NCBI GenBank assembly: GCA_951812955.1
Contig: OX638340.1
Location: 960,001-1,024,000, forward strand
Source of the DNA: an uncultured Gemmatimonadota bacterium
Lineage (GTDB): Bacteria; JAAXHH01
Direction of reading: 5' to 3'
Length of the DNA stretch: 64,000 nucleotides
The notes below the pieces were generated by a model. The model saw only the letters and a list, made by a program, of their open reading frames with translations. It made no database searches and had not been told where the DNA came from. Positions 1 through 17,975 of this stretch are shown in pieces. Both the position numbers and the translations under genes were made by a program. Within the stretch, counting starts at the first letter, position 1. Each line of letters begins with the position of its first letter.

Positions 1-394
1 AACCGCTCGCGCGCCATGCTTGCGGTGGCTTACCGACCGGCCTGGGCCGGTCCGATCGTGGACGTTGCGCCGCGGGACCCGGCTGACCTGGAACGGATGC
101 CCGATTCCGTCCGTCCCTTCCTGGGCGACCCGAGCATGCGATCTTACGAGTTCGGTGTTGGCAACAAACCCGAGGGGATGTCGGCCGGCGCGCCGGGGAT
201 GAACCCAAGCAGGTGGGAAAGCCCGCGTGAGGGACGCGCGCGGAAAGCGTAAGCCCCGCATGAGGGACGCGTTGAGGGACGCGCGCGGGACGAGTGAGGG
301 ATACGAACGCTAAAACGCGGTATCTTCGCGGACCAATCGGTTTTCAATCGGCCACATTATCTAAAGATCGACATGCAACCATAGGAGAAAGCAC

Positions 395-1039
395 ATGCCG
401 AAGGCCCTGTTCGTCTGGGGTGGCTGGGAAGGACACGAACCCAGGCAGTCCCAGGACATCTTCGTCCCGCTGCTCGAGGCGGAAGGATACGAAATCGCGC
501 AGCACGACTCGCTTGACGCCTACCTGGACGCCGAAGCCATGCCCACGTACGATCTCATCGTACAGACCGTGACCATGAGCACGATCACCGGCGCGCAGGA
601 GAAAGCGCTCCTGGATACGGTCGCCGCCGGCGCCGGGTTCGGGGGATGGCACGGCGGCCAGGCGGACGCCTTCCGCAACAACACGAACTACCAGTACATG
701 GTGGGAGGGCAGTGGGTGTCCCACCCCGGCGGTATCATCGACTACGAAGTCAACATCATCGATCACGAGGATCCCATCACGGCCGGGTTGAACGACTTCG
801 CCATGCGCTCGGAGCAGTATTACATGCACGTCGATCCGGGCAACCAGGTGCTTGCGACCACGACCTTCAGCGGGGAACACGACGCGTGGATCGAGGGAAC
901 CGTCATGCCCGCCGCATGGAAGAGACCGTGGGGAAAAGGCAAGGTATTCCACTGCACGCTGGGTCACGTCGCCGCCGATTTCCACGTGCCGGAAGCGCGG
1001 GAAATCGTCCGGCGCGGGCTGATCTGGTGCACCCGTTGA
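395..1039 (+). CDS. ThuA-like trehalose-utilization family protein (type-1 glutamine amidotransferase-like fold)
   Basis: 214 aa ORF with an N-terminal [14 protein letters not shown] motif, YQYMVGGQW and a C-terminal HCTLGH motif typical of ThuA-domain proteins. AGGAGA sits upstream of the ATG. Confidence 0.6.
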
Positions 1040-1047
1040 TATTATTC

Positions 1048-1076
1048 TTTACTTTGTTGATTCAGATATATATATT
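1048..1076 (+). promoter_or_regulatory. Candidate sigma70-like promoter (TTTACT, 17 bp spacer, TATATT) in the AT-rich spacer upstream of the peroxiredoxin gene
   Basis: AT-rich island in an otherwise 63% GC sequence. The hexamers are read directly at 1048-1053 and 1071-1076. Confidence 0.3.
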
Positions 1077-1157
1077 ATCGGGAACAGCACGGAGGATCAG
1101 GCTACTGATCGCAAACCGCAACTATCCCTACAGCAAGCCATTTGCAGGAGGAATGTC

Positions 1158-1790
1158 ATGGCGTTACGTTTAATGGACGAAGCCCCGGATTTCACAGCCG
1201 AAACCACCGAGGGAACGATTCGTTTTCACGAATGGCTCGGTGACAACTGGGGCATTCTCTTTTCCCATCCCGCGGATTATACGCCGGTCTGTACCACGGA
1301 ACTGGGTTACATGGCCAACATCGCGCACGAGTTCGCCAAACGCAATGTCAAGGTCCTGGCCATCAGCGTGGATCCCCTCGATTCCCATCGTGGCTGGATC
1401 GGCGACATCAACGAGACGCAGAACGCGAACGTAAGCTATCCGCTGATCGCGGACCCCGACCAGGAAGTCGCCCAGCTGTATGATATGATCCACCCGAACG
1501 CGAACGACAAGATGACCGTGCGGTCGGTATTCGTCATCGGGCCGGACAAGAAGATCAAGCTGATGCTGACCTACCCCGCGTCCACCGGCCGGAACTTCGA
1601 CGAGATCCTGCGGGTTGTGGATTCCCTGCAGTTGACGGCCAATCACAAGCTGGCCACGCCGGTGAACTGGACCAGTGGGGAAGACTGCATCATCGTGCCG
1701 GCAGTGACCGACGAAGAAGCGGACCAGACCTACTCCGACATCCGTCGCGTGAAGCCCTACCTGCGTTACGTGAAGCAGCCCCAGGACTGA
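1158..1790 (+). CDS. 1-Cys peroxiredoxin (Prx6 subfamily)
   Basis: DYTPVCTTELG peroxidatic-Cys motif with no resolving Cys. Length is 210 aa and GGAGGAATGTC precedes the start. Confidence 0.85.
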   Translation: MALRLMDEAPDFTAETTEGTIRFHEWLGDNWGILFSHPADYTPVCTTELGYMANIAHEFAKRNVKVLAISVDPLDSHRGWIGDINETQNANVSYPLIADPDQEVAQLYDMIHPNANDKMTVRSVFVIGPDKKIKLMLTYPASTGRNFDEILRVVDSLQLTANHKLATPVNWTSGEDCIIVPAVTDEEADQTYSDIRRVKPYLRYVKQPQD

Positions 1791-1831
1791 TTGCGGTCGA
1801 GAAGGGCCGTTGCAATACGATAAAAGGCGCC

Positions 1832-1864
1832 TCAACCGGGGCGCCTTTTTTATTTGGTAATATA
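1832..1864 (+). terminator. Rho-independent terminator downstream of the peroxiredoxin gene
   Basis: AAAAGGCGCC-tcaaccgg-GGCGCCTTTTTTATTT: a GC stem with an A-tract on the 5' side and a T-tract on the 3' side. Confidence 0.7.
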
Positions 1865-1952
1865 TGCTTGACTGGCGCTCCGTTATCCCGTATGATATCA
1901 TAATGATATTATTTTGTTACCCATCTTACCAGTGTTTCAAGGAGGGGAAGTA

Positions 1953-2855
1953 ATGATAACGGAACGAATACCGTTGAAATTCAACGGCTGGAGAGCGTTG
2001 GCCTGGCTGATCGTCCTGTTTCCTTTGACGATGGTTGCTATGGATTTGGTCATTACGTTCAACCCACCAGTTCTGGAGCAGGAAATGAGCGTCAGAGACA
2101 TTCTTCTGCTGGTGTTTTTCTTCATACCGGCGCTCGTCGCATTGGGATTTTGCTTCAAGGGATTCTTCACGCTGGAACCGAACGAAGCCAGTGTGCTAAC
2201 GCTGTTCGGCAAGTACACCGGAACGGTAAGGGAACAGGGATTCTGGTGGGTGAATCCCCTCAACGGCAAAAAGAAGATCTCCCTTCGAGCCAGAAATTTC
2301 GACAGTGAGCGATTGAAGGTGAACGACAAAAACGGCAACCCGATCGAAATCTCGGCCGTCGTGGTCTGGCGCGTGGAAGATACCGCCCAGGCGAGTTTCG
2401 AGGTGGACGATTTTATCGAATACATCCAGGTTCAGTCCGAATCGGCAATCCGCCATCTGGCCACCAGCTACCCGTACGATCTGACCGAGGGGGAGACCGC
2501 CAGCCTGAGGTCATCCATCGAAGAAGTTTCCGAAGCGCTCGGCAACGAAATACAGGAACGGGTCGGCGCGGCCGGAGTTTCGGTCACTGAGGCACGGATC
2601 AACCACCTGGCTTATGCCCCGGAAATCGCGCAGGTGATGCTGCAGCGGCAGCAGGCCGATGCCATCATCGCCGCCCGTCAGAAGATTGTGGACGGCGCGG
2701 TGGGCATGGTGGAAATGGCCCTTGAAAGACTCAAGGAACAGCAAGTGGTCGATCTGGATGAAGAACGCAAGGCGGCCATGGTGAGCAATCTTCTCACGGT
2801 GCTCTGCAGCGAATCGTCCACGCAGCCTATCGTCAATACCGGTTCGCTGTACTGA
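1953..2855 (+). CDS. SPFH/band-7 domain membrane protein
   Basis: N-terminal TM helices are followed by an SPFH core ([14 protein letters not shown]...[11 protein letters not shown]...). A GGAGG RBS lies 7 nt upstream of the ATG at 1953. The track ORF begins upstream at 1914. Confidence 0.75.
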
Positions 2856-2993
2856 CGGGATCGACTGTTCTTTCAACGGTGGAAGCCCGAGGGCCTCAAA
2901 CGCGCGCCGGATCCCCCATCTCATGCCCGGATGCTCGGAGGCGGCGCGCAGCGTTTGAGGAAATTGACGCGAGAATCCAGGTAACCTGTTATC

Positions 2994-3161
2994 GTGCCGG
3001 ATAAGAAGAAATCCCTGCTGTTGCGAATCAACACCGAGCTCTGGAATGACCTCAATGCCTGGGCGAAGGATGAATTGCGTAGCGTGAACGCGCAGATCGA
3101 GTATATTCTTCGGGAGGAAGTGCACAGACGGAAGAAACGACGGCGACGCGAGGAAGATTGA
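2994..3161 (+). CDS. Small ribbon-helix-helix (Arc/CopG-like) DNA-binding protein, 55 aa, GTG start; not in the ORF track (<60 aa)
   Basis: Translation is VPDKKKSLLLRINTELWNDLNAWAKDELRSVNAQIEYILREEVHRRKKRRRREED. The beta-strand (SLLLRI) followed by two helices and a basic tail is the RHH signature. Confidence 0.5.
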   Translation: MPDKKKSLLLRINTELWNDLNAWAKDELRSVNAQIEYILREEVHRRKKRRRREED

Positions 3162-3241
3162 AGAGATCGAAACGTGTGCAGGTATACTTGTACGGGTGTT
3201 AATGTACACGCGTGGCCAAGCACGGGGTAGCTGTCATGGGT

Positions 3242-3289
3242 GGCGGACCGGCGGACCGGCGGACCGGCGGACCGGCGGACCGGCGAACC
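3242..3289. repeat. Octanucleotide microsatellite (GGCGGACC)x5 plus one GGCGAACC variant
   Basis: Perfect tandem 8-mers read directly. They sit 40-90 bp upstream of the PhyH gene and 80 bp downstream of the RHH gene. Confidence 0.9.
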
Positions 3290-3329
3290 GGCAAATCAGC
3301 GGTCGCGTATTTGATCCGGAGACATTGAA

Positions 3330-4190
3330 GTGGCGGTGGAAACGAACACGGACCTGGACCGATACGAGACTACGGGATTTGTGATTCTGAAGGGATTCTA
3401 TCCCGACACGGTCGTAGCGGCGGCCCGGGACGCCGCGGCCGAGCTCGTCGAACGGTTCGCGAAACGGCTTATGTCGTCGGGCACGGTCTCCCGGGATCAT
3501 GCCGAGGCATCGTTTGAAACGCGCCTGGCCCGGCTCTGTGAGGATGCCCCGGACGAAGCGCCCCACATATTTCGTAAGGAACTCCACCTGGCGGGTATGT
3601 ACGACGTGTTTTTCTACCCGCCCCTGCTCGATATCGTGGAATCCCTGATGGGCGAGGAACTTCGTCTTTATCCCAACTATTCCATCCGTCCCAAGCTGCC
3701 CGACCACGCCCCCACGCTCGTCCTCTGGCACCAGGACGGCGGGTATACCTACAAGGTCCACCGAGACGGGGACCACAGCGCGGAGACGGTCGATGCCCTG
3801 CGCATGATCAACGTATGGTCGCCGCTGGTCCCCGCCCGCGAGGACAACGGCTGCATGCAATTCATCCCCGGCACTCACCGAATCGGCATGGCCCGGCACG
3901 AAGACCGCGAATTCTACCTCGAGATATCGCAGGAGGACCTGGCGCCCTACGTGGACCAGGCCGTGTCCATCGAACTCGATCCGGGCGACATCGTCCTCTT
4001 CCACAACATGCTCTACCACCAGGGTCTGCCCAATCGCACCGACCAGGTAAGGTGGAGCATGGACTGGCGCTATCAGGACGCAAGGCAGTCCACGCTGCGC
4101 AGTACGCGGGGCCATCTTGCCCGCAGCCGCCAGTGTCCCGATGAGGTAGTACGTGACGCCAATGACTGGACCAGCCGTGTTTTTCAGTAG
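3330..4190 (+). CDS. Phytanoyl-CoA dioxygenase (PhyH) family Fe(II)/2-oxoglutarate-dependent oxygenase
   Basis: HQDGGY...H facial-triad context and the FHNMLYHQG region. Fold and length (286 aa) are typical PhyH. Confidence 0.75.
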   Translation: MAVETNTDLDRYETTGFVILKGFYPDTVVAAARDAAAELVERFAKRLMSSGTVSRDHAEASFETRLARLCEDAPDEAPHIFRKELHLAGMYDVFFYPPLLDIVESLMGEELRLYPNYSIRPKLPDHAPTLVLWHQDGGYTYKVHRDGDHSAETVDALRMINVWSPLVPAREDNGCMQFIPGTHRIGMARHEDREFYLEISQEDLAPYVDQAVSIELDPGDIVLFHNMLYHQGLPNRTDQVRWSMDWRYQDARQSTLRSTRGHLARSRQCPDEVVRDANDWTSRVFQ

Positions 4191-4313
4191 CAATCCGGCC
4201 GCGCAGACTTCGGCCGCGCAGACTCAGGCCGCCGAGGCCCTTTCTGGCGGCATGGCCACCCAATCCGTCCTCATCACCCAACCCGGCCCCATCGTCTTAT
4301 ACCGGTATTTCCT

Positions 4314-5564
4314 TTGATCCGTTTTCCAGATATACGGCTTGTCTTCCTTCGTGAACTCCGCGGCGCCCTGCGGGAACGTTCCATCGTCATCAACGTCGTG
4401 CTGGTTCCTTTGTTCATGTATCCTATCCTCCTGTGGATGGTCTACACGGGACTGTCCTTCGTCATCGGTCAGACGGAGAACTTCACGGCCCGGGTAATGA
4501 TCGCCGGCGACACCGAAGCGGGCGGGGCGCTCGTTCAAAAAATCAAAGCGGCGGATCGCGTTACAATCACCACCGTGGATACACCGCGTGACGCGATTCG
4601 CGACGGACGGCTGGATCTCCTGGTTGAACTCGCCCCCCGGGACGGTGGCTACGCGGATGACTTCGAGGTTCGGTTTACCGGTGATTCCTCCAAGGACCGG
4701 AGCCGGATCGCCACGAGTCGGGTCGAGGATCTGGTCACCCGGCACCGAACGGCCTATTTGGAAGCAGCTGGGAGGAACCGGGGACTGTCCGGCCCGGAAT
4801 ACCAGATGATCTGGATCGAACGGGAGAACATATCCTCCGAACGGGACATGGGAAGATTCATCCTCGGCATGGCGGTTCCCGTGCTGGTCATCATCATGGT
4901 GATCGTCGGCGGTATGTATCCCGCGCTGGACGCGACGGCAGGAGAAAGGGAACGGTCCACCTGGGAGACCACGCTGACGGCGGCGACGGATCGCGTGAAC
5001 GTCCTCGCGGGCAAGTACCTGTACGTGGCCGCCCTCTCCACAACGGCCGGCTTGCTGAATTTCGCGGCCATGAGCCTTTCCATGCGGACCCTCATGGCGC
5101 CGCTCCTGGGAGACCGTCTCGAAAGCGTGGCCTTTACGATCCCGTGGGCGTCCGTACCCCTGATCGTCGTCGTAACGGTACTGCTTGCCCTGTTCGTATC
5201 GGCGCTGCTCATGATTGTGGCCAGTTTCGCCCGAACTTTCAAAGACGCCCAGTCCCTGGCAGGTCCCTTCGTCACCGTCATGATCCTGGTACCCGCGGTC
5301 TTCATGCAGTTTCCCGGCCTGGAACTCACGACGTGGCTGGCCTGCGTGCCCATCATCAATGTCTGCCTGGTGTTCCGGGAAGCCATAGGCGGAGTCTATC
5401 AATGGCCCCAGATCGGCCTGACCCTGCTTATGGAAGGCCTGTACATCTGGATCGTTTTGCGGCTCGCTTCGGCGATCACCCGCTACGAAGACATCATGAC
5501 CGGCAGTTATGAAGGCGGCCTCACCGGTTTCCTGAAACACCGCCTCCTGCGCCGTACCTCCTGA
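4314..5564 (+). CDS. ABC-2 family transporter permease (NatB-like), TTG start
   Basis: 416 aa, about 6 TM, large periplasmic loop after TM1, GERERSTWETTLTA motif shared with NatB-type permeases. Confidence 0.7.
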   Translation: MIRFPDIRLVFLRELRGALRERSIVINVVLVPLFMYPILLWMVYTGLSFVIGQTENFTARVMIAGDTEAGGALVQKIKAADRVTITTVDTPRDAIRDGRLDLLVELAPRDGGYADDFEVRFTGDSSKDRSRIATSRVEDLVTRHRTAYLEAAGRNRGLSGPEYQMIWIERENISSERDMGRFILGMAVPVLVIIMVIVGGMYPALDATAGERERSTWETTLTAATDRVNVLAGKYLYVAALSTTAGLLNFAAMSLSMRTLMAPLLGDRLESVAFTIPWASVPLIVVVTVLLALFVSALLMIVASFARTFKDAQSLAGPFVTVMILVPAVFMQFPGLELTTWLACVPIINVCLVFREAIGGVYQWPQIGLTLLMEGLYIWIVLRLASAITRYEDIMTGSYEGGLTGFLKHRLLRRTS

Positions 5565-5578
5565 GAGGAACAACAACC

Positions 5579-6325
5579 GTGGCCGAACCCGTGTTCGTGA
5601 AGGACCTGACCAAGACCTACTACGATGAATCCCGCGGTCCCGTACACGCAGTAAGGCAGATCGGCTTTGACTGCCGCCCCGGCGAGATATTCGGGCTCCT
5701 CGGGGCTAACGGCGCCGGCAAGACCACTACCCTGCGCATGCTGACCACGATCCTCAAGCCCACCGCCGGCACCGCGAAGATCATGGGATACGACGTGGCG
5801 GAGGAACCCGTGGAGGTACGCCGACGCCTGGGGTTCTATTCGGCCACGACCGCATTGTATCCAAGGCTTTCCGCCAGGGAAACCATCGAGTTTTTTGCAC
5901 GGATCAACGGGTACCCCGCCTCCGGGACCCCTGCCCGGGTCGATGAGCTGATCGAACGATTCGGAATCGGAGAATATGCCCGCACCCGCATAGACAAACT
6001 CTCCAGCGGCATGAAGCAGAAAGTGGCGATCGCACGGACCGTGGCCCACGATCCGCCGATCCTGGTCTTCGACGAACCCACCGTCGGCCTGGACGTGCTC
6101 AATGCCCTGGAAATGCAGGGCATATTGGCCGAGTTGAAAGCGCAGGGGAAGACCATCCTGTTCTCTACCCATATCATGAGCGAAGCCGAGAAACTGTGCG
6201 ACCGGATTGCCATCATCCACGAGGGCCGGATCCTGGCCTGCGGCACCCTGGAATCGCTTCGTGAACGGACCGGGGCCCATTACCTGGAAGACGTTTTCGT
6301 CTCCTGCATCACAGAGGTCTCATGA
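5579..6325 (+). CDS. ABC transporter ATP-binding protein (NatA-like), GTG start
   Basis: Walker A GANGAGKTT, signature LSSGMKQKV, Walker B ILVFDEPTVGLD. GAGAGGAA RBS. Confidence 0.9.
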   Translation: MAEPVFVKDLTKTYYDESRGPVHAVRQIGFDCRPGEIFGLLGANGAGKTTTLRMLTTILKPTAGTAKIMGYDVAEEPVEVRRRLGFYSATTALYPRLSARETIEFFARINGYPASGTPARVDELIERFGIGEYARTRIDKLSSGMKQKVAIARTVAHDPPILVFDEPTVGLDVLNALEMQGILAELKAQGKTILFSTHIMSEAEKLCDRIAIIHEGRILACGTLESLRERTGAHYLEDVFVSCITEVS

Positions 6326-8454
6326 ACCGCGCGACGATCGGACTGCTGGTAAAACACGAAATGCGCATGCTCTTGCGGGACCGGCGGACCGTGGTGCTGA
6401 GTATTCTCCTGCCGCTCGTCGTTTTGCCGCTGATACTCTTCGGCTTCAAATTCATGAGCGAATGGCGCAGTGAGCAACTGGACGCAACGACGTATCGCTA
6501 TGCCGTGACCGGCGCCTATGCCGACTCGGTACGGGCACTCATAGGAAGGGGAGCGCGTCTCGCGGAAAAGGACGCGGAGGAAGGCCGGCAACCGGCCTCA
6601 TTCGTCGAGGTGGAGGTGGCCGAACCCGATTCGAGCCTATCCGCCGGCGACCTGGATTTCTACCTGGTAACCCAGACCGGCGCGGAGGCCGATTTGCTCG
6701 ATCTGGCTGTTGCGGGAACAGACTCGGCGATGCGCGCGGACGCGGAAATCGACCGGGCGGGTGAAGATATCGCCGACGTGACCGTGGCGGACGAGCGGTA
6801 TCCGGGCGTGCCCGTGGTCACGGTCTACTTTCGCGCCAACCGGGACGAATCCAGGACGGGCAGCGGCCTGCTGGTGGATCGCCTGGTGGACGCCAGGAAA
6901 CAGGACCGTACCGATGAGCTGCGCAGGCGGGGTTTCGCGGCGGATCCGGAGGAGGCCATAGAGCTTTCGAGGGTGGACGTGGCGACGCCGGAACAGGCAG
7001 CAGGATTCTATTTCGGACGTATCCTGCCGCTTTTTCTCGTATTCCTGACCCTAACCGGCGCTTCGGTGGCGGCCATGGACAGTGTCGCGGGGGAAAAGGA
7101 ACGCGGCTCCCTGGAAACCCTCCTGACCACTTCAGTCAGCCGGTTCGAAATCATTACCGCGAAGCAGTTGACGATCCTGTCGGTCGCGCTCTTCATCACC
7201 CTGGCCCAGGCCGGAAACCTTTTCGTCTATCTTGCCCTCGGATTCATCGAATTCTCCGCGGACCTGGAAATCGACGTGTCACCCGGCGCCGTGCTGGTAT
7301 TGCTTGCCCTTTACGTCCCCGTGGCCGTCGTGGTTTCGTCCCTGCTCCTCCTGGTGTCGGCCTATGCGAAGACTTACCGGGAGACGCAGCTGTACCTCCT
7401 GCCTGTTTTCTTCGGACTCATGATCCTGACGGCGGCGGGCCTGTTGCCGGGTGTTTCCCTCCGCTCGCTGATCGCCGTCGTTCCCGTAGCGAACGTCAGC
7501 GTGGCCGTACGTGAGATCATGGTCGGCCATTACGATATCCCCATGCTCCTGGTAACCTGTGCGGCCATGCTCGCAGCAGCCTTCATGATGCTCAGGTTGT
7601 CGTCGCGCATGCTGGGCATGGAAAGGCTCATCACCGCGCAGGACACGGACGCGGCGGATCTGGAGGGAGGCGCCGCGCTGTTTCCCAGGAGGGTGCTCCT
7701 GTGGTTTGTCGGCATGTGGGCGCTGATTATCATCGCGCCGGCGAACGTCGAGGCGTTGACGCGTCTGGAGGGACAGTGGGCCTTCAATATGTTCGTCATC
7801 TTTTTCGGCGGTTCTTTGCTCATGATCCGTTTACACCGGCTCGACTGGCGGCAGGCCCTGGCGCTCCGTCCGGTGCGTCCGCAGGTCTGGCTGGCGGTAC
7901 TCCTCCTGGTGCCTTCGACCTTGTTGACCGGTATCTTCATTGTAGGACTGTCCAGCGTATTCCTGCCCTTCCCGGAAGAAATGCTGGAGAAATTCGCCAG
8001 CCAACTCATTCCCGAAGACTTCCCGATGTGGCAGATCCTGCTCATGCTGGCCCTCACGCCCGGGATCGTGGAGGAAATGGCCTTCCGGGGACTGTTGCTT
8101 CACGGGCTTCACCGCCGGCTCAGGCCGCTGGCGCTCATCCTGGTGGTCGGCCTGATTTTCGGACTGTTTCACCAGGCCCTTTTCCGGATCATCCCCACGG
8201 CCTACCTGGGTATGGTGCTGACCGCCGTGGCCGTGCTCACGGGTTCGATCCTTCCGTGCATACTACTCCACGCCGGCAACAACGCCTTCGCCTTCCTGCT
8301 CTACCGTTCTGGTACCGAAGTCGAAAATTGGCCCCCGGAACTGCTCCTGTTGAACATCCCCGTTTTTGTGTTCGCGATCTATCTGCTGTATCGATATCGA
8401 ACGCCCTATCCTGGCCTGTTGCCCTTCCGGAAAAAGGTTCCTGAAGACGCGTAG
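6322..8454 (+). CDS. ABC-2 permease fused to a C-terminal CPBP (CAAX protease/bacteriocin-processing) intramembrane metalloprotease domain
   Basis: The N-terminal ~440 aa are paralogous to the upstream permease (GEKERGSLETLLTTSV). The C-terminal ~270 aa carry CPBP motifs EEMAFRG, FGLFHQ and HAGNN. Its start overlaps the ATPase stop by 4 nt. Confidence 0.7.
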   Translation: MNRATIGLLVKHEMRMLLRDRRTVVLSILLPLVVLPLILFGFKFMSEWRSEQLDATTYRYAVTGAYADSVRALIGRGARLAEKDAEEGRQPASFVEVEVAEPDSSLSAGDLDFYLVTQTGAEADLLDLAVAGTDSAMRADAEIDRAGEDIADVTVADERYPGVPVVTVYFRANRDESRTGSGLLVDRLVDARKQDRTDELRRRGFAADPEEAIELSRVDVATPEQAAGFYFGRILPLFLVFLTLTGASVAAMDSVAGEKERGSLETLLTTSVSRFEIITAKQLTILSVALFITLAQAGNLFVYLALGFIEFSADLEIDVSPGAVLVLLALYVPVAVVVSSLLLLVSAYAKTYRETQLYLLPVFFGLMILTAAGLLPGVSLRSLIAVVPVANVSVAVREIMVGHYDIPMLLVTCAAMLAAAFMMLRLSSRMLGMERLITAQDTDAADLEGGAALFPRRVLLWFVGMWALIIIAPANVEALTRLEGQWAFNMFVIFFGGSLLMIRLHRLDWRQALALRPVRPQVWLAVLLLVPSTLLTGIFIVGLSSVFLPFPEEMLEKFASQLIPEDFPMWQILLMLALTPGIVEEMAFRGLLLHGLHRRLRPLALILVVGLIFGLFHQALFRIIPTAYLGMVLTAVAVLTGSILPCILLHAGNNAFAFLLYRSGTEVENWPPELLLLNIPVFVFAIYLLYRYRTPYPGLLPFRKKVPEDA

Positions 8455-8583
8455 GACGATCGCAAATCGCGATAGCCGATTGATATTGCCTCGCGTAGCC
8501 TGCAACCTTATATTGCGAACTGTTTTCCGGGAATCCCCGCGTAATCGCGCCTACTCTGGACTGCCGTTATATCCATTCCATAC

Positions 8584-9177
8584 ATGTCCCGTCTTTCCAA
8601 ACATCCGCTAGCACTATTCATCCGAGTCATGCTAAAAAGCCCGACGAGCGTGTGTGCCGTGGCGCCGAGTTCGCGGACGCTCGCCCGGGCGATGGCGAAA
8701 GGGCTGACGATCGGTGACGACGAGTCCGTCGTGGAGCTGGGGCCCGGTACGGGCGCTATCACGGACCAGATCCGCCACATTTTGCCCCATGACGGCGGAT
8801 ACCTGGGCATCGAAATCGAGCCGCGGTTCGTCGACCTGCTGCGGAAACGATATCCCGGTCTTCGATTTGAACAGAACACTGTAGCGAAGGCCTTCCAGCT
8901 GCACGCGAACACGGGAACCCCTCCGGTCAGGGCCGTGATCTCCGGGCTGCCGATCTCGACCATGCCGGTCCAGGTCATTGACGAAATCATCGCGAATCTC
9001 GACCGGCTTATGAAACCCGGTACTGTTTTCCGCATGTTCCAGTATATACACGCCTACTACCTTCCAGCGTCGATTCAGTTCAGACGGCGGATGGCGCCGT
9101 TCTTCTCCTGTTACCGGGTTGAATCAGTTGTCCTCAAGAACCTGCCTCCGGCCCTCGTGATTACCTGGACGCGCTAG
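8584..9177 (+). CDS. Class I SAM-dependent methyltransferase (phospholipid N-methyltransferase-like)
   Basis: VELGPGTGAIT glycine-rich SAM motif. The N-terminal AVAPSSRTLARAM resembles the PmtA/RrnaAD-like family. Confidence 0.55.
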   Translation: MSRLSKHPLALFIRVMLKSPTSVCAVAPSSRTLARAMAKGLTIGDDESVVELGPGTGAITDQIRHILPHDGGYLGIEIEPRFVDLLRKRYPGLRFEQNTVAKAFQLHANTGTPPVRAVISGLPISTMPVQVIDEIIANLDRLMKPGTVFRMFQYIHAYYLPASIQFRRRMAPFFSCYRVESVVLKNLPPALVITWTR

Positions 9178-9382
9178 CGCTCCGCGACGCGTGTCTGCCG
9201 GAATTTTAAAGTATTTCAGGTGTTCGGTTGTAATATATGAAGATTCCCGACGATCAACGGCGGGGAAACGGGGGCCCGTCGCGCCGGCCAGGCGTCTACC
9301 TGACGCCGGTCCTGACTGAATGGCAGTACGTCGAACTCCCTTCGTTCCAATTTGCCCAAGCCAGGAAAGAACATAGGTTTTC

Positions 9383-12082
9383 ATGCGTCTGAAACCCCTC
9401 GCCTTTTCCGTTCTCACCGTGATTTCCATATCCACGTTGACATTTGATACCGTGACGGCCCAGTCCGAAAGTGACGAACCCGCCCTGCCCGCAATGGAGG
9501 CGGCGGAGCGCACCGGGCACATCGAGATCGACGGAAGGCTGGATGAAGCGGCCTGGACGGCGGCCATTCCGGCTACACAGTTCGTCCAGCGGGAGCCGGT
9601 CGAAGGGGCCAATCCCGACAAGGCCACCGAAGTACGGGTGCTCTACGACGCCGACGCCATCTACATCGGCGCGCGGATGTTCGACGATCATCCGGAGCAT
9701 ATCGGCCGGCAACTCGTCCGGCGAGACGAGCGCGGCGCTTTCGACCTGTTCTCCGTTTCCATCGATCCGAACAACGACAGGCTTACCGGGTATCAGTTCC
9801 GCGTCAGTGCTGCAGGGGCGCAGCGGGACGCGTACCTGTATGACGACGTGCGGCAGGACGATGCGTGGGACGCCGTATGGGAATCGGGCGTGGTGATCGA
9901 CGAACTGGGCTGGGCCGCCGAGATGCGGATTCCCCTTTCCCAGATGCGATACGAGACGACGGACGGCGCCCAGTCCTGGGGCGTGAACTTCATGCGGCGG
10001 TGCCTTGCCACGAACGAGGTCATCGACTTCGCTCTCCAGTCCCGGCTGCGGTATGGGAGGGTGAGCGTCCTGGGCAGGCTGAACGGACTGGTCTTGCCGT
10101 CGGACGCCCGCCGCCTGGAGGTCAGGCCCTATACCCTCGGCAGCGCCCGGACCGCGCAGGCCGAACAGGGGAATCCCTTCTTCGACGGATCCGATTACAA
10201 TGCACGGGCGGGCCTTGACGTACGGTACGGCCTCGGTTCGTCCTACCACCTCGACATGACGATCAATCCCGACTTCGGGCAGGTGGAAGTAGATCCGGCC
10301 GTCGTAAATCTCTCGGCCTTTGAAACGTTTTTCCGGGAACAACGCCCCTTTTTCGTCGAGGATGCCCAGGTTTTCGAATTCGGCCTGTCGGGCCGGGACG
10401 AACTGTATTACAGCCGACGGATCGGGCGGCAACCCCGGGGCGGCACGCCGGACGACGCGGATTTCTCCGATATTCCCACGGAGACTAGCATTCTCGGCGC
10501 CGCCAAGATCACCGGCCGATCGCAGGGTGGCGTTTCCATCGGTGCCCTGGCCGCGGTTACGGGAAGGGAAACGGGGAAGGCCTATTCCCTGGTTGACAGG
10601 CGAACAGAGGAGTTCACGGTGGAACCCCGGGCGGGATTCAGTGTCTTCCGGATCCGCCGGGATTTCAGGAACGGCGCCAGCCAGTTCGGGGCAGTGGGCT
10701 CGCTAATGCACCGGGCCCTGCCCGATGACGGCGCCTTCGATTATCTCACATCGGGGGCCTTTACCGGAGGAGTGGACTTCGAACACAACTGGGGGGGAGC
10801 GAGAGAGAGAGACTGGGCAGTCTACGGGTACCTGGCGGGTAGCCGCGTCCAGGGAAGCACGGAAGCGCTGACCCGGCTGCAGCGGGCCAGCAACCACTAC
10901 TTCCAGCGTCCGGACGCCACGCGTTTCGCCGTGGATTCAACCGCCACGTCCATGAACGGGTACAATTGGCGGTTGCAGTTCGCCAGGCGAGACTCGCAGA
11001 ACTGGTCCGGAGCGGTCTGGTTCGCCCAGATTTCGCCCGGGTTCGAAGTCAACGACCTGGGATTCTCCCGATCGAACGAACGCCTCGACGGCGGCGCGCG
11101 GATCGAATACCAGAACATCACGCCGGGACGGTTCTTCCGCAACTATGAGTTCCGTTTCTTCACGTTCTACAACTTCCGGCACGAGGCCCTCGACGACCCG
11201 TGGTCCTGGTCGTCCTGGCGGAACAACTATAAGAACGGACGTTTCTTCGCGGGGGGCAATTTCGAACTCAACAACTACTGGGAGGTCTTTCTCGGCTCCA
11301 GTTACAGCCCCACCCAGTTCAGCGATACGCGGACCCGGGGCGGTCCGGTGATGGAGGATCCCGGATCCTATTCCTTCGATCTCGGCATCAGGTCGGACCG
11401 GAGGAAACGGATCTCCCTGGAGACGGAATTCGACTACGAGCGATTCCAGCGGGGTGGCCACGAGTTTGAAACGGAAATCGAAGCCACGATTCGTCCGTCT
11501 CCCAACTGGGAACTGGAACTTGCGCCAAATTTCAGCTGGGAGCGCAACGCCGCCCAGTACGTTACGCAGACCGACGCCCTGGCCTTCGAGCCCACCTACG
11601 GCAGCCGGTACGTGTTTTCGGACCTGCAGAGGCGGTCCTTTTCCCTCGAAACCCGTTTGAACGTGGCCTTTTCGCCCGATTTGACCCTGCAGCTGTACGC
11701 CCAGCCCCTGCTGTCCTCGGGCGATTACCTCAACTACAAGCAATTGCTCCGTGGCAACAGTTTCGATTTCGACGTGCTGGACGAGGGTACGCGGTCCTTC
11801 ATCGATCCGGTCGACGGTTACCGTTACCTGGACTTCAACGGGGACGGTATGCCCGATATCAATTTCTCGGACCGGGACTTCAACATCCAGTCTCTGCGCA
11901 TGAACATCGTGCTGCGCTGGGAATACCGGCCCGGTTCCCGGGTATTCCTCGTCTGGCAGCAGACCCGCAGCGAAAGGGACGAAAACGGGACGCTTGACAT
12001 CGGCAGAGACTTCGGCAACCTGTTCGGCGGGGAATCGGAGAACATCTTCATCGTCAAGTTCAACTACTGGTTCGGCGTGTGA
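9383..12082 (+). CDS. DUF5916 family outer-membrane protein with N-terminal CBM9-like domain
   Basis: Signal peptide, then IDGRLDEAAW...ATEVRVLYDADAIYIGARMFDD (CBM9-like), followed by a long beta-rich region. 899 aa. Confidence 0.65.
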   Translation: MRLKPLAFSVLTVISISTLTFDTVTAQSESDEPALPAMEAAERTGHIEIDGRLDEAAWTAAIPATQFVQREPVEGANPDKATEVRVLYDADAIYIGARMFDDHPEHIGRQLVRRDERGAFDLFSVSIDPNNDRLTGYQFRVSAAGAQRDAYLYDDVRQDDAWDAVWESGVVIDELGWAAEMRIPLSQMRYETTDGAQSWGVNFMRRCLATNEVIDFALQSRLRYGRVSVLGRLNGLVLPSDARRLEVRPYTLGSARTAQAEQGNPFFDGSDYNARAGLDVRYGLGSSYHLDMTINPDFGQVEVDPAVVNLSAFETFFREQRPFFVEDAQVFEFGLSGRDELYYSRRIGRQPRGGTPDDADFSDIPTETSILGAAKITGRSQGGVSIGALAAVTGRETGKAYSLVDRRTEEFTVEPRAGFSVFRIRRDFRNGASQFGAVGSLMHRALPDDGAFDYLTSGAFTGGVDFEHNWGGARERDWAVYGYLAGSRVQGSTEALTRLQRASNHYFQRPDATRFAVDSTATSMNGYNWRLQFARRDSQNWSGAVWFAQISPGFEVNDLGFSRSNERLDGGARIEYQNITPGRFFRNYEFRFFTFYNFRHEALDDPWSWSSWRNNYKNGRFFAGGNFELNNYWEVFLGSSYSPTQFSDTRTRGGPVMEDPGSYSFDLGIRSDRRKRISLETEFDYERFQRGGHEFETEIEATIRPSPNWELELAPNFSWERNAAQYVTQTDALAFEPTYGSRYVFSDLQRRSFSLETRLNVAFSPDLTLQLYAQPLLSSGDYLNYKQLLRGNSFDFDVLDEGTRSFIDPVDGYRYLDFNGDGMPDINFSDRDFNIQSLRMNIVLRWEYRPGSRVFLVWQQTRSERDENGTLDIGRDFGNLFGGESENIFIVKFNYWFGV

Positions 12083-12111
12083 CCGCGGGCGGGTTCGGCG
12101 TGTGACCGCGG
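12069..12111. repeat. 23-bp direct duplication (TTCGGCGTGTGACCGCGG...) spanning the stop codon of the DUF5916 gene
   Basis: Two copies 23 bp apart, read directly. The first copy contains the TGA stop. Confidence 0.8.
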
Positions 12112-12294
12112 CTGGACAGCCCCGCGCGGCCTCGATTGCGCCTTGACAGAAAAGGGCCGGGACGCCCATATTGAAATTGTAAAAGTATGCCGGCGCTTAG
12201 GGGTATCCGGTTCGATCCGGCCGGCCGGAATTTCTGTAAGGAAGTAACGGTCAAGTGGCAACGGGACACACCGCCGAAGGACATAGACCCTATC

Positions 12295-14535
12295 ATGAAA
12301 ATCATGAAACCGATTCTAAAATCCATTCTGTTGCTCATAACTATGTGCGCATTCGGCCTTGCGACCCGGTCCGTCCAGGGACAGGCGGTTCGCACCGATT
12401 ACATGGAAACGGAACTGGTCGTGGAGACGACGTCCATCAAGCCCGGGCAGCCTTTCTGGGCCGGCCTGCGGATGAAGATGGACGAGCACTGGCATACGTA
12501 TTGGCGCAACCCGGCCGATTCGGGTCTTCCTACCGAGATTGACTGGGCGCTTCCCGATGGTTTCCAGGCTGGAGAGATCAACTGGCCCTATCCCCAGAAG
12601 ATTGTGCTCGACATCCTGGCCAGCTACGGGTACGAGGGCGAGACGCTGCTGCTCGTGGAGATCACACCCCCGGCGGATCTGGAGACCGGCGGCACGGCCG
12701 ACATTGGGGCCTTCGCCTCCTGGCTGGTCTGCGCGGATATCTGCCTACCGGGAGAATCGGGATACCAGGTAACGCTCCCCGTAACCGATGAGGCGCCTCA
12801 GGCCGACGAAAGATGGACGGATCTGTTTACCCGCACCCGGGAGCAGCTTGCGGTCCCGGTACCGGGGTGGCAGGTCGAGGCCGTCATATCCGATTCCACC
12901 GTGGCGTTGCACGCGTCCACGCCCGAGTGGTACCGCGGATCGCTTACCCGCGTCGAATTCTATCCGTACAACGAAGACCTGATCGACTACGTATCGCCCC
13001 AGAGACTGGAGAAGACCGAAACCGGGTACCTGTTGACTATGCGCCGGTCGGGCTTCTACACTGGCAGGCCCGATGAAATCACGGGCGTGCTGGTATCCGC
13101 GGAAGGATGGCGCGGCGCCGGATCGGAGCGTGCCCTGGCCGTTGCCGCAGTCTACGCGGATGAGCTTCCGGCGGCGGTCGCCGCCATCGGACCGGCGGTT
13201 GCGGGTGAAACGGCGGGCGCCCTTGCGCCGGTCTCCGGCGATCTGGTTGCCGGCCTGTGGCAGGCCCTGCTTTTCGCCCTCATCGGCGGCCTGATTCTCA
13301 ACCTGATGCCCTGCGTGCTCCCCGTGCTGTCCATCAAGGTCCTCGGATTCATACACCAGGCGGGCGACGATCCTGCCAAGGCCCGGCGGCACGGATTGGT
13401 ATTTACCGCGGGCGTCCTGATTTCCTTTCTCGCGCTGGCGGCGGTGCTGATTGCCCTGCGTGCCGGGGGAGAACAATTGGGCTGGGGATTCCAGCTTCAG
13501 TCGCCGGCCTTTCTCGTCATCCTGTCGGTCATCATATTCGTGTTCGGCCTCAGTCTATTCGGCGTCTTCGAAATCGGTACGTCCCTTGTCGGCCTTGGCG
13601 GCAGGGCTGATTCGGGCAGCGGACTCGGTGGCTCCTTCATGAGCGGCGTCCTGGCCACGGTCGTGGCCACGCCGTGCACCGCGCCTTTCATGGGCGTGGC
13701 CCTGGGATACGCATTGACGCAATCGGCGGCGCAATCGCTGGCGATCTTCGGATTCCTGGGCCTGGGCATGGCCCTGCCCTACCTGACCCTGTCTTCCGTG
13801 CCCGCCCTGCTGAAATATGTACCAAAACCTGGCGCCTGGATGGAGTCGTTCAAGCAGTTCATGGGATTCCTGATGATGGCCACCGTGGTCTGGCTGCTCT
13901 GGGTGCTGAACCTTCAGACGGACCCAAACCTCGTCGCCCTCGTGATGGTCCTGCTGGTGATGGTGAGCCTGGGAAGCTGGATACTCGGCCGCTGGGGAGG
14001 GATCTCCGCCGGAAGCAGGACCCGGATCGCGGCCAGGTCCGTCGCAACGGTAATCGTTTTCGCGAGCCTCGCGGCGGTATTGAGCCAGGTACCCGCCCCG
14101 GCCAAGGCCGAGCGGGCCGCGATGACGCCGGTGAACAGCGCGGGGCTGGAGTGGCAACCCTTCTCCCGGCAACTTGTACAGGATCTGCGTGCAACGGGCA
14201 AACCGGTGTTCGTGGACTTCACCGCTGCCTGGTGCCTTAGTTGCCAGGTGAACAAGCGCGTAGCACTGAATGACAGCCGCGTGGTGGAACGGTTCGAGAC
14301 GCTGGGTGTGGCGACTGTCCAGGCCGACTGGACGTCACGGGACCCCGAGATCACGCGGGCACTCGCCGAATTCGGACGCAACAGCGTCCCGCTGTACGTG
14401 CTGTACTCGGGCGGACCCGATTCCGAACCGGCAATTCTACCGGAACTGCTCACGCCCGGTCTGGTGCTGGACGCCCTGAAGCAGGCCGAAACAGGTAGTG
14501 CCGCGAGCGGACGGACTGTCGGCATGATCGATTGA
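12295..14535 (+). CDS. dsbD: Thiol:disulfide interchange protein DsbD (protein-disulfide reductase)
   Basis: Signal peptide and periplasmic N-domain. Central CcdA-like core with LMPCVLPVL, then C-terminal thioredoxin domain with WCLSCQ. The track ORF starts upstream at 12187. ATG at 12295 gives MKIMKPIL... signal peptide. Confidence 0.8.
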   Translation: MKIMKPILKSILLLITMCAFGLATRSVQGQAVRTDYMETELVVETTSIKPGQPFWAGLRMKMDEHWHTYWRNPADSGLPTEIDWALPDGFQAGEINWPYPQKIVLDILASYGYEGETLLLVEITPPADLETGGTADIGAFASWLVCADICLPGESGYQVTLPVTDEAPQADERWTDLFTRTREQLAVPVPGWQVEAVISDSTVALHASTPEWYRGSLTRVEFYPYNEDLIDYVSPQRLEKTETGYLLTMRRSGFYTGRPDEITGVLVSAEGWRGAGSERALAVAAVYADELPAAVAAIGPAVAGETAGALAPVSGDLVAGLWQALLFALIGGLILNLMPCVLPVLSIKVLGFIHQAGDDPAKARRHGLVFTAGVLISFLALAAVLIALRAGGEQLGWGFQLQSPAFLVILSVIIFVFGLSLFGVFEIGTSLVGLGGRADSGSGLGGSFMSGVLATVVATPCTAPFMGVALGYALTQSAAQSLAIFGFLGLGMALPYLTLSSVPALLKYVPKPGAWMESFKQFMGFLMMATVVWLLWVLNLQTDPNLVALVMVLLVMVSLGSWILGRWGGISAGSRTRIAARSVATVIVFASLAAVLSQVPAPAKAERAAMTPVNSAGLEWQPFSRQLVQDLRATGKPVFVDFTAAWCLSCQVNKRVALNDSRVVERFETLGVATVQADWTSRDPEITRALAEFGRNSVPLYVLYSGGPDSEPAILPELLTPGLVLDALKQAETGSAASGRTVGMID

Positions 14536-16039: not shown

Positions 16040-16990
16040 ATGGGCTGTTTCCGTTTTGAGGCGACTGGATACCCGGTTTATTACGCAATGCGCCTGGAGA
16101 CCGCCATGGCCATGTTCGGCGACCCTGAAGCGTTCGTCATGATGAGCGAACGCGAGAAGTATCTCTACGATCTCCAGGGGTTCCTCGTGGTGCGCGACCT
16201 GCTTTCCACCGATGAGGTCCGGGCACTGAACGATGCCCTGGACGCCAATCCGGACCGGACCGCCGAACACGGACCGGGCGGCGCGCTGGACGGCACGCCA
16301 CTGGCCGGACCATATTCGCAATACATCCACTACGAGGGCATGCTGACCTGGGACCGGCCCTGGTGCCAGCCCTTCCGCGAACTCCTCGCCCACCCGAAGC
16401 TGATCCCCTATCTCAACACCATGATGGGACGAGGCTGGAAACTGGATCACAATATCGACGTGCTCACTTCGAAACCGGGCGCCCAGGGTACGCCCTTCCA
16501 TGGCAACAGCACGGGTACGTTCGCCGGTTCGACCTATTACACGTACGACGACGGCCGGATGCGCAGCGGCCTGATCGTCTGCCAGTTCTACCTGACCGAC
16601 GTGAATCCGGGAGATGGCGGGCTCACCGTGATTCCCGGCAGTCACAAGGCCAATTTTCCCATGCCGGGATACGTCCGCAATTACGAGGACCACCAGGAGA
16701 TCTTCCATCATATCGCCGTCAAGGCCGGCGACCTGGTCATCTTCAACGAGGCGACGACGCACGGTGCCTTGCCGTGGAAGGGAGTGGGCGAGCGCCGCTG
16801 CGTGCTCCACCGGTACATCCCGAAATACATGCACTACGATGGCGGAGTCTACGAAACGCGCATGCCCGAATGGACGCATGAGCTCACCGATGCCCAGCGG
16901 GCCGTGCTGGAACCACCGTACATCTACAACCGCCCCCTGATCGAGGACGACGGCGAATCGATCGCGCGTCCCCGCAGGGAAGGCATCTGA
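16040..16990 (+). CDS. PhyH-family Fe(II)/2OG dioxygenase (tandem paralog 1)
   Basis: 316 aa. Shares blocks with the next gene (KYLYDLQGF, MLTWDRPWC, GWKLDH, DVNPGDGGL, IPGSHKANF, LVIFNEATTHG). Confidence 0.75.
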   Translation: MGCFRFEATGYPVYYAMRLETAMAMFGDPEAFVMMSEREKYLYDLQGFLVVRDLLSTDEVRALNDALDANPDRTAEHGPGGALDGTPLAGPYSQYIHYEGMLTWDRPWCQPFRELLAHPKLIPYLNTMMGRGWKLDHNIDVLTSKPGAQGTPFHGNSTGTFAGSTYYTYDDGRMRSGLIVCQFYLTDVNPGDGGLTVIPGSHKANFPMPGYVRNYEDHQEIFHHIAVKAGDLVIFNEATTHGALPWKGVGERRCVLHRYIPKYMHYDGGVYETRMPEWTHELTDAQRAVLEPPYIYNRPLIEDDGESIARPRREGI

Positions 16991-17042: not shown

Positions 17043-17975
17043 GTGTCCGGGCCTACTTCCGACTACCCCGCCGACTACTTGCTACATGCGAAAGTGCAGA
17101 CCGGTATGAACCCGACATCCGAATCCTTCGCCACCATGGCGCCCCATGAGCAGTACCTCTTCGATCTGCAGGGGTTTATCGTGGTGCGCAATGCCCTTGC
17201 GCCCGAACAGGTCGATGCCCTGAACGCGGCGCTGGACGCCAATCACGACAAACGTAAGGAAGACGTGGTCACCCAGACGAGCGAGGCGCTGAAGGGCAAG
17301 CAGTACCGCGGTCTCTACGACGGCATGCTGACGTGGGATCGGCCCTGGTGCCTGCCCTTTCGCGAAGTGCTTGCCAATCCGAAGATCATACCGTACCTGA
17401 ACACGCTGCTGGGCCGGGGGTGGAAGCTGGACCACGATCCGTTCATCTACACATCGAGCGTGGGGACCGAGGGCCTGAACCTCCACGGTTACGGACTGGC
17501 CGAGTTCAACGGTTCCCGGTTCTACCACTACCAGAACGGCGCCATGCGTTGCGGATTGATCAACTGCCAGTACCAGCTGAACGACGTGAACCCTGGCGAC
17601 GGCGGGCTGTGCGTCATCCCGGGCAGCCACAAGGCGAATTTCACCCTGCCCGGCGACATTTCCCGTTACGAAGCCCACCAGGAGATCGTCCGCCACGTGT
17701 CCATGAAAGCGGGCGACCTGGTCATCTTCAACGAGGCGACGACCCACGGGACGCTGCCCTGGAGGGGCGAAGGCGAACGTCGCTCTCTGTTCTACCGGTA
17801 TACCCCCAAGTACATGCATTACACCGGCGGCGTATACGAAACCGGCCTGCCGGAGTGGACGAGAGAGCTTACGGACGCCCAGCGCGCCGTGCTCGAACCG
17901 CCCTATGTCTATCAACGGCCGATGATCGACGACGACGGACAGACGCTGTCGACCCCGCGGCGCGAAGGAGAGTGA
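17043..17975 (+). CDS. PhyH-family Fe(II)/2OG dioxygenase (tandem paralog 2), GTG start (alternative ATG at 17106)
   Basis: 310 aa, ~60% identical blocks to 16040..16990. Confidence 0.7.
   Translation: MSGPTSDYPADYLLHAKVQTGMNPTSESFATMAPHEQYLFDLQGFIVVRNALAPEQVDALNAALDANHDKRKEDVVTQTSEALKGKQYRGLYDGMLTWDRPWCLPFREVLANPKIIPYLNTLLGRGWKLDHDPFIYTSSVGTEGLNLHGYGLAEFNGSRFYHYQNGAMRCGLINCQYQLNDVNPGDGGLCVIPGSHKANFTLPGDISRYEAHQEIVRHVSMKAGDLVIFNEATTHGTLPWRGEGERRSLFYRYTPKYMHYTGGVYETGLPEWTRELTDAQRAVLEPPYVYQRPMIDDDGQTLSTPRREGE

Follow-up and report, generated by a model that had tools for sequence, protein, structure and literature searches.

Introduction

ATP-binding cassette (ABC) exporters of type V, also termed ABC-2 exporters, move lipids, lipid-linked polymers, and amphipathic peptides. 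In peptidase-containing ABC transporters (PCATs), an N-terminal cytoplasmic cysteine peptidase is combined with the type IV exporter fold and a fused nucleotide-binding domain (NBD). Among CPBP proteins, the prenyl endopeptidase Rce1 (PMC5874806) and the myxosortase MrtX (PMC11980579) cut beside lipidated or membrane-anchored termini, and the roles of the bacterial CPBP/Abi proteases are still poorly defined. For EcsAB and RasP of Bacillus and Staphylococcus, one report states that Ecs inactivation inhibits intramembrane proteolysis and that the transported molecule is unknown (PMC2996298). Here, we analyzed a three-gene cassette at positions 4314-8454 of a 64,000-nucleotide (nt) stretch of contig OX638340.1, from an uncultured Gemmatimonadota bacterium, in which one of two ABC-2 permeases is fused to a CPBP domain. 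This whole stretch is called the window, and all coordinates are window positions, with position 1 being its first letter.

The locus carries one copy of a three-gene cassette that is widespread and self-contained. We propose, with the balance of evidence standing at about even, that the cassette would be a cut-and-extract machine, a type V exporter equipped with a CPBP protease, whose substrate would be a peptide or protein embedded in the membrane or anchored to it by a lipid. The three genes, assigned by open reading frame (ORF) and Pfam matches, are as follows (lengths in amino acids, aa).

4314-5564, + strand, unfused ABC-2 (type V) permease (perm1), 416 aa, TTG start
5579-6325, + strand, ABC ATPase, 248 aa, GTG start
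6322-8454, + strand, permease::CPBP fusion protein, 710 aa, ATG start

This order and these coordinates agree exactly with those given in an earlier reading of the locus made from its sequence alone (hereafter, the sequence-only reading). The 4-nt overlap claimed there was also seen, as the ATGA at the ATPase/fusion junction, in which the stop codon of the ATPase gene overlaps the start codon of the fusion gene. A Shine-Dalgarno-like GAGGA lies 9 nt 5' of the GTG codon of the ATPase gene.

Results

Conservation of the three-gene cassette

Scanning GTDB with a single genome for each species gave 211 genomes with a relative, from which 79 loci were retrieved. The order permease, ATPase, and permease::CPBP was kept in all of the informative loci (70/70), which are those whose upstream sequence extended for 2.3 kb or more. 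The carriers belonged to Gemmatimonadota, Latescibacterota, Zixibacteria, Acidobacteriota, Verrucomicrobiota, Fermentibacteria, Eisenbacteria, and other phyla. The same gene order was found in four members of more distant subfamilies, in which stop and start codons overlapped and the neighbours were wholly different; three of these members exceeded the cutoff of the curated NCBIfam family NF041647 (ABC_perm_CPBP).

The CPBP domain alone (aa 445-710) was searched with phmmer against 1.84 billion cluster representatives, which gave 1060 matches at E <=1e-10 and 87 at E <=1e-30. Approximately 101 of the best 150 matches were proteins of 600-760 aa with the match at about residues 400-700, that is, the same fusion, and the shorter matches were mostly fragment-like. 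Judging from these matches, the fusion is obligate for this CPBP lineage.

The neighbours of the cassette were clustered for ORFs of at least 90 aa in 58 distant loci, and no family occurred in more than 7 loci. The survey of fusion frequency and flanking genes suggested by the sequence-only reading thus showed a widespread fusion, a universal cassette order, and unconserved flanks. In the same comparison, no precursor, modification, or regulator gene of the kind expected for a bacteriocin or a ribosomally synthesized and post-translationally modified peptide (RiPP) was conserved beside the cassette, and the idea that the cassette serves bacteriocin maturation or a peptide cluster found no support on this ground.

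Domains, motifs, and fold of the fusion protein

The domain makeup proposed from the sequence alone, namely two ABC-2 permeases, an ATPase, and a CPBP domain with three motifs, was borne out by Pfam matches and motif positions. In the fusion protein, Pfam placed ABC2_membrane_2 at aa 9-369 (3.4e-22) and ABC2_membrane_3 at aa 22-424, and the C-terminal region was assigned to the CPBP family by the domain search proposed for it (Rce1-like PF02517, aa 570-656, 4.7e-18, 65.7 bits against a cutoff of 22.4). The protein has 14 predicted transmembrane helices (TM; those of the CPBP domain are primed in the list below), with both termini predicted to be cytoplasmic. Its features are listed below.

6322-7617, + strand, permease domain, aa 1-432
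6487-6987, + strand, extracytoplasmic domain between TM1 and TM2, aa 56-222
7087-7131, + strand, coupling-helix motif AGEKERGSLETLLTT in the permease domain
7618-7680, + strand, conserved cytoplasmic post-TM6 element and linker, aa 433-453
7681-8394, + strand, CPBP/Rce1-type glutamic intramembrane endopeptidase domain with 8 TM helices and peripheral helices, aa 454-691
8071-8091, + strand, CPBP motif 1, EEMAFRG, in TM4', aa 584-590
8158-8175, + strand, CPBP motif 2, FGLFHQ, at the end of TM5', aa 613-618
8269-8289, + strand, CPBP motif 3, HAGNNAF, in TM7', aa 650-656
8395-8451, + strand, cytoplasmic C-terminal tail

An AlphaFold2 model was built from a 56-sequence alignment, with a mean predicted local distance difference test score (pLDDT) of 78.7. 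In this model, the permease domain consists of an N-terminal amphipathic helix, TM1, the extracytoplasmic domain, and TM2-TM6, the last two of which are separated by short re-entrant helices. The catalytic motifs map to TM4, TM5, and TM7 of the CPBP domain, matching MmRce1 and MrtX. Searching the PDB sequences with a profile of the family gave only noise.

Residues E584, E585, R589, F613, H617, H650, and N654 were invariant in 56 homologues with identity down to 45%, and the catalytic residues were likewise invariant in a 14-sequence alignment. At the level of sequence, therefore, the catalytic Glu, His, His, and Asn set of the CPBP domain is intact. The linker residues E434, G449, G450, and L453 were also invariant in the 56 homologues.

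A separate observation concerns the end of the protein, where the motif Y-R-x-R-T-P-Y-P follows the last CPBP helix (aa 690-697, 8389-8412). Y690 and R693 were invariant in the 56 sequences, R691, T694, P695, Y696, and P697 were conserved in at least 90% of them, and all of these residues were invariant in the 14-sequence alignment. Residues 693-697 of this motif, in the tail, are encoded at 8398-8412.

Relation to the curated family NF041647

Against the NF041647 model, the fusion protein scored 428.9 bits (E 3.9e-128, model positions 3-634 of 636), the curated cutoff being 435. Homologues at 46-83% identity scored 383-447 bits, on both sides of the cutoff, and more distant members of ~650 aa scored 464-536 bits. 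As in the NF041647 architecture, an N-terminal ABC-2 permease and a C-terminal CPBP domain are carried on one polypeptide, and by its sequence the fusion protein is within, or at the edge of, this curated family.

A word-indexed search of 5.8 billion proteins found at least 634 homologues, and the best 120 all shared the Pfam architecture. Some homologues are named after NF041647, and others bear the automatic name "sodium transport system permease protein". Our literature searches found no functional study of the fusion, the NF041647 entry being annotation only, and the single mention of NF041647 that was found is an annotation table for a Listeria CPBP gene. The partner permease and the three-gene order were not found described in these searches.

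The permease::CPBP architecture is thus already known as a curated bacterial family that is common in environmental metagenomes, and the novelty of the fusion implied by the sequence-only reading has to be given up. The same reading had named, as one of the findings that would speak against it, a widespread housekeeping permease variant with mutated catalytic residues. The fusion is indeed widespread and chromosomal-core-like, but its catalytic residues are not mutated, being invariant in the 56 sequences.

Predicted orientation of the protease cavity

The distribution of Lys and Arg residues was averaged over the 56 sequences for each loop of the CPBP domain. The loops on the side of the termini contained 4.0, 3.4, and 3.9 Lys+Arg residues, and those on the opposite side contained 0.3, 1.7, 1.0, and 0.4. 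This charge bias places the termini of the CPBP domain in the cytoplasm, in agreement with a six-helix permease that has its N-terminus inside. Accordingly, the loops at aa 505-519 and 597-601 are predicted to be cytoplasmic, and those at aa 548-568 and 664-677 periplasmic. In the crystal structure of MmRce1, the conical catalytic cavity opens on one face and both termini lie on the opposite one (PMC5874806). From the charge distribution and homology to MmRce1, the conical cavity of the CPBP domain is predicted to open into the periplasm, where the two large extracytoplasmic domains are also located.

The unfused permease and the ATPase

The unfused permease matched ABC2_membrane_3 (3.6e-18) and ABC2_membrane_2 (7.9e-15) in Pfam, and in NCBIfam it matched NF041647 alone, over the permease half of that model (303.6 bits, model positions 2-411 of 636). 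With 28% identity to aa 171-460 of the fusion protein, it is a paralogue of the permease region of that protein. The two permeases share an amphipathic element after TM6 (fusion aa 434-460, 7621-7701), which aligns with perm1 aa 390-412 (5481-5549). In the fusion, this element, ERLITAQDTDAADLEGGAALFPRR, extends to aa 457 and serves as the linker to the CPBP domain; its homologue (5508-5549) forms the C-terminus of perm1, which stops 4 residues past the common element. The element is conserved among perm1 orthologues, which measured 350-478 aa in 73 loci, with a CPBP domain in none of them.

The ATPase matched ABC_tran (PF00005) at 1.8e-31, and its closest NCBIfam model was that of the DrrA subfamily, with a score under the cutoff of that model. 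The following motifs, read from the sequence, are intact.

5702-5728, + strand, Walker A, GANGAGKTT
5999-6022, + strand, signature, LSSGMKQK
6059-6079, + strand, Walker B, ILVFDEP
6161-6172, + strand, H-loop, FSTH

The ATPases are 65-77% identical across phyla. Compared with the window copies, the ATPases of distant loci show ~71% identity and each of the permeases ~42%. As an observation in its own right, 65-77% identity for the ATPase against ~40% for the permeases across phyla (loci L021-L079) amounts to an unusually strong constraint on the nucleotide-binding subunit.

Genes around the cassette

In the window, ThuA, 1-Cys peroxiredoxin, SPFH, and PhyH genes lie upstream of the cassette, and methyltransferase, DUF5916/CBM9, and DsbD-like genes lie downstream. 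The block from ThuA to DsbD (window 1-14535) was syntenic, at 75-98% protein identity, only in ~20 relatives (L001-L020 and L030), which are metagenome-assembled genomes labelled Gemmatimonadetes or Latescibacterota, several of them from sponge or coral samples. From this synteny, the window itself probably derives from the same symbiont lineage. The GC content of the cassette is the same as that of its flanks. On the basis of this synteny and GC content, the cassette is most likely chromosomal and vertically inherited. A promoter and terminator scan of 3200-9400 found nothing above shuffled expectation.

The nearest neighbours that were considered as candidate substrates or partners are as follows.

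3330-4190, PhyH-family gene, upstream
4252-4317, micro-ORF of 21 codons
8584-9177, class I S-adenosylmethionine (SAM) methyltransferase gene, directly downstream of the cassette

The micro-ORF had been offered by the sequence-only reading as a candidate substrate. It exists but is not conserved, being missing from most relatives of 88-95% identity, in many of which the intergenic region is ~47 nt, and it was rejected. The PhyH dioxygenase had been named beside it; its PhyH-family identity was confirmed, and its linkage was limited to the close sponge-symbiont clade and one other locus (L024), with the gene missing from the other distant loci. Similarly, the methyltransferase was considered as an Icmt-like partner by analogy with prenyl-CAAX processing and set aside, its linkage among the loci compared being found only in the close clade, L022 (Zixibacteria), and L023. 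An anti-phage defence role was also discarded: PADLOC gave only generic matches of the ATPase and the methyltransferase to MADS components (the methyltransferase to mad2), and neither permease was matched. A scan of the window ORFs for tripartite C-terminal sorting signals gave two unremarkable matches and no family, and no family with a CAAX-type or Cys-containing C-terminal tag was found among the window ORFs.

Two further features of this region were observed. The spacer between the PhyH stop codon and perm1 contains an imperfect 15-nt tandem duplication, CGGCCGCGCAGACT(T/C), at 4196-4225. Moreover, three PhyH-family (phytanoyl-CoA dioxygenase-like) genes occur within 15 kb, at 3330-4190, 16040-16990, and 17043-17975, the latter two being adjacent paralogues.

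Discussion

In the cut-and-extract machine proposed here, the two permeases would pair as a heterodimer with two copies of the ATPase; this 1:1 permease heterodimer with an ATPase dimer is what we infer from gene order, paralogy, and translational coupling. What the CPBP domain would cut is a peptide or protein segment in the outer leaflet of the cytoplasmic membrane, either embedded there or attached by a lipid anchor, and the ABC half would spend ATP either on pulling the substrate into reach or on expelling the hydrophobic product from the bilayer. The absence of conserved neighbours and the position of the cassette in this lineage, within a chromosomal block with stable synteny and unremarkable GC content, make it probable that the substrate gene lies elsewhere and that the role is in envelope maintenance or protein sorting rather than in serving a local peptide gene cluster.

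The sequence-only reading had suggested that the fusion is a device for coupled processing and export, or for export and immunity. Functional coupling of the protease and the transporter is plausible from comparative sequence data, since the closest relatives of the CPBP domain are mostly the same fusion and the three-gene order was kept in every informative locus. However, the version of this idea in which processing occurs in the cytoplasm and is followed by export is unlikely, as the predicted periplasm-facing cavity argues against it.

Several points weigh against the cut-and-extract machine. Both the predicted proteolysis and the predicted transport derive from sequence and modelling, and the analysis found no substrate. 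The heterodimer is deduced solely from gene order and paralogy, and the orientation of the cavity from a monomer model, the charge bias, and one homologous crystal structure. The fusion protein of the window falls 6 bits under the NF041647 cutoff, probably because its extracytoplasmic insert is longer. Furthermore, the CPBP fold does not always serve proteolysis: SpdC, which has this fold, is a partner of the SagB glucosaminidase (PDB 6u0o), and LnsB, another CPBP protein, is reported to participate in lipoprotein N-acylation (PMC7387801).

LnsB likewise favours a reading in which the CPBP domain would be a non-proteolytic module on an exporter of lipids or lipid-linked polymers, acting as a scaffold, as a receptor for a polyprenyl or lipid-linked substrate, or as an acyl-transfer partner. 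The permease fold matches such exporters (ABCA, ABCG, ABCH, Wzm, TarG, and KpsM), and a working catalytic site need not hydrolyse peptides. Nevertheless, the invariance of E584, E585, R589, H617, H650, and N654 over the 56 sequences is the pattern of a working catalytic site, and we consider this reading rather doubtful. The predicted periplasmic cavity, on the same side as the extracytoplasmic domains, is also compatible with a device for immunity or resistance against external membrane-active peptides, which the heterodimer would expel from the outer leaflet in a LanFEG-like manner and the CPBP (Abi) domain would degrade. The permease fold resembles that of PmtD, an exporter of amphipathic peptides, and CAAX/Abi proteins occur in bacteriocin loci and are tied to self-immunity in Firmicutes (for example, PMC9298176). 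We regard an immunity device as unlikely, though still worth attention, since the cassette has no conserved bacteriocin, regulator, or sensor-kinase gene as a neighbour and resides in a conserved chromosomal core and not in a variable island, and since an ATPase identity of 65-77% across phyla is unusual for fast-evolving immunity genes. In addition, the environmental carrier phyla are generally regarded as diderm, and their outer membrane shields the inner membrane, keeping many membrane-active peptides off it.

The predicted orientation of the cavity bears in the opposite direction on a PCAT-like mechanism, in which the CPBP domain would cleave a cytoplasmic or inner-leaflet precursor peptide, possibly lipidated, which the attached transporter would export. 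The fusion of protease and exporter and their universal co-inheritance are what such a mechanism would produce, and eukaryotic Rce1 works on the cytosolic face (PMC5874806), but the cytoplasmic termini together with the geometry of Rce1 put the cavity on the periplasmic face. Nor is a precursor gene conserved nearby: beyond the close relatives, none was found among the ORFs of at least 90 aa that were compared, a comparison that a short unlinked or fast-diverging precursor would escape, and the 21-codon ORF is absent already from most of the relatives of 88-95% identity. We therefore consider a PCAT-like mechanism improbable. A NatAB-type sodium efflux pump, which the automatic name of some homologues and the shared broad Pfam families of the permeases would suggest, seems to us very hard to credit, as that name is an automatic transfer at the superfamily level, no NatB-specific NCBIfam model was matched, NF041647 was the only above-noise match for either permease, and ion efflux offers no role for a conserved intramembrane protease whose catalytic residues are intact. 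The NatA and NatB labels of the sequence-only reading are apt as statements of broad family similarity, but nothing in the cassette points to sodium transport.

Returning to the cut-and-extract machine, a more specific form of it, which we hold to be rather unlikely, would be an ATP-powered machine for sorting or release. In this form, an envelope protein attached to the inner membrane by a lipid or a helix would be drawn out of the outer leaflet of that membrane by the ABC-2 heterodimer, and the protease would cut the anchor of this protein on the periplasmic side, so that myxosortase-like cleavage would be merged with Lol-like extraction. Such a machine would act across Acidobacteriota, Gemmatimonadota, Latescibacterota, and related phyla, with its substrates encoded elsewhere in the genome. 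Proof that the cassette couples ATP to sorting or release would raise its interest considerably. As a discovery within the window, little is added, and no local pointer to a substrate was obtained. What is newly added is the universal three-gene unit, the perm1 paralogue that lacks a CPBP domain, the independence from neighbouring genes, and the prediction of a periplasm-facing protease. The occurrence of this CPBP subfamily almost only as an ABC-transporter fusion points to energy-coupled intramembrane proteolysis or product extraction, and the universal unit, the neighbour independence, and the predicted periplasmic cavity make the coupling idea testable.

Comparison with known systems

Among known proteases, Rce1/MmRce1 (type II CAAX prenyl endopeptidase; PDB 4CAD) and MrtX carry the motifs EExxxR in TM4, FxxxH in TM5, and HxxxN in TM7, as does the CPBP domain of the window, to which MmRce1 is 19% identical. 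These proteases are stand-alone proteins, whereas the CPBP domain of the window is fused to a transporter permease. The curated models for sorting proteases scored far under their cutoffs with this domain (MrtS 30.1 against 130, MrtJ 20.3 against 75, and MroQ 15.4 against 270).

Among transporters, the type V (ABC-2) exporters ABCA, ABCH, mycobacterial Rv1217c-Rv1218c, NosFY, and PmtCD have the same six-helix permease fold. Like the permease of the window, they have TM1 and TM2 separated by an extracytoplasmic domain and TM5 and TM6 by re-entrant helices, and their ATPase, whether separate or a fused NBD, is of the DrrA/NatA type and resembles that of the window. However, their sequence identity to the permease of the window is just 8-19%, none of the matched structures is described with a protease domain, and the cassette differs from them in having two different permease genes with one ATPase gene.

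EcsAB/RasP offers a likeness of function: in this pair, intramembrane proteolysis is reported to be functionally linked to a transporter of the ABC-2 type (PMC2996298). In that case, unlike in the cassette, the transporter and the protease are separate proteins, RasP is a site-2 metalloprotease, and the hosts are Firmicutes. The PCATs, in which a C39 peptidase is fused to the exporter, share the concept, as a protease and an ABC exporter are covalently joined and cleavage and transport take place on one molecule. A Pfam search of the three proteins of the cassette gave no C39 match. In contrast to PCATs, the protease in the fusion protein of the window is an intramembrane glutamic one at the C-terminus of a type V permease, and its cavity is predicted to be periplasmic.

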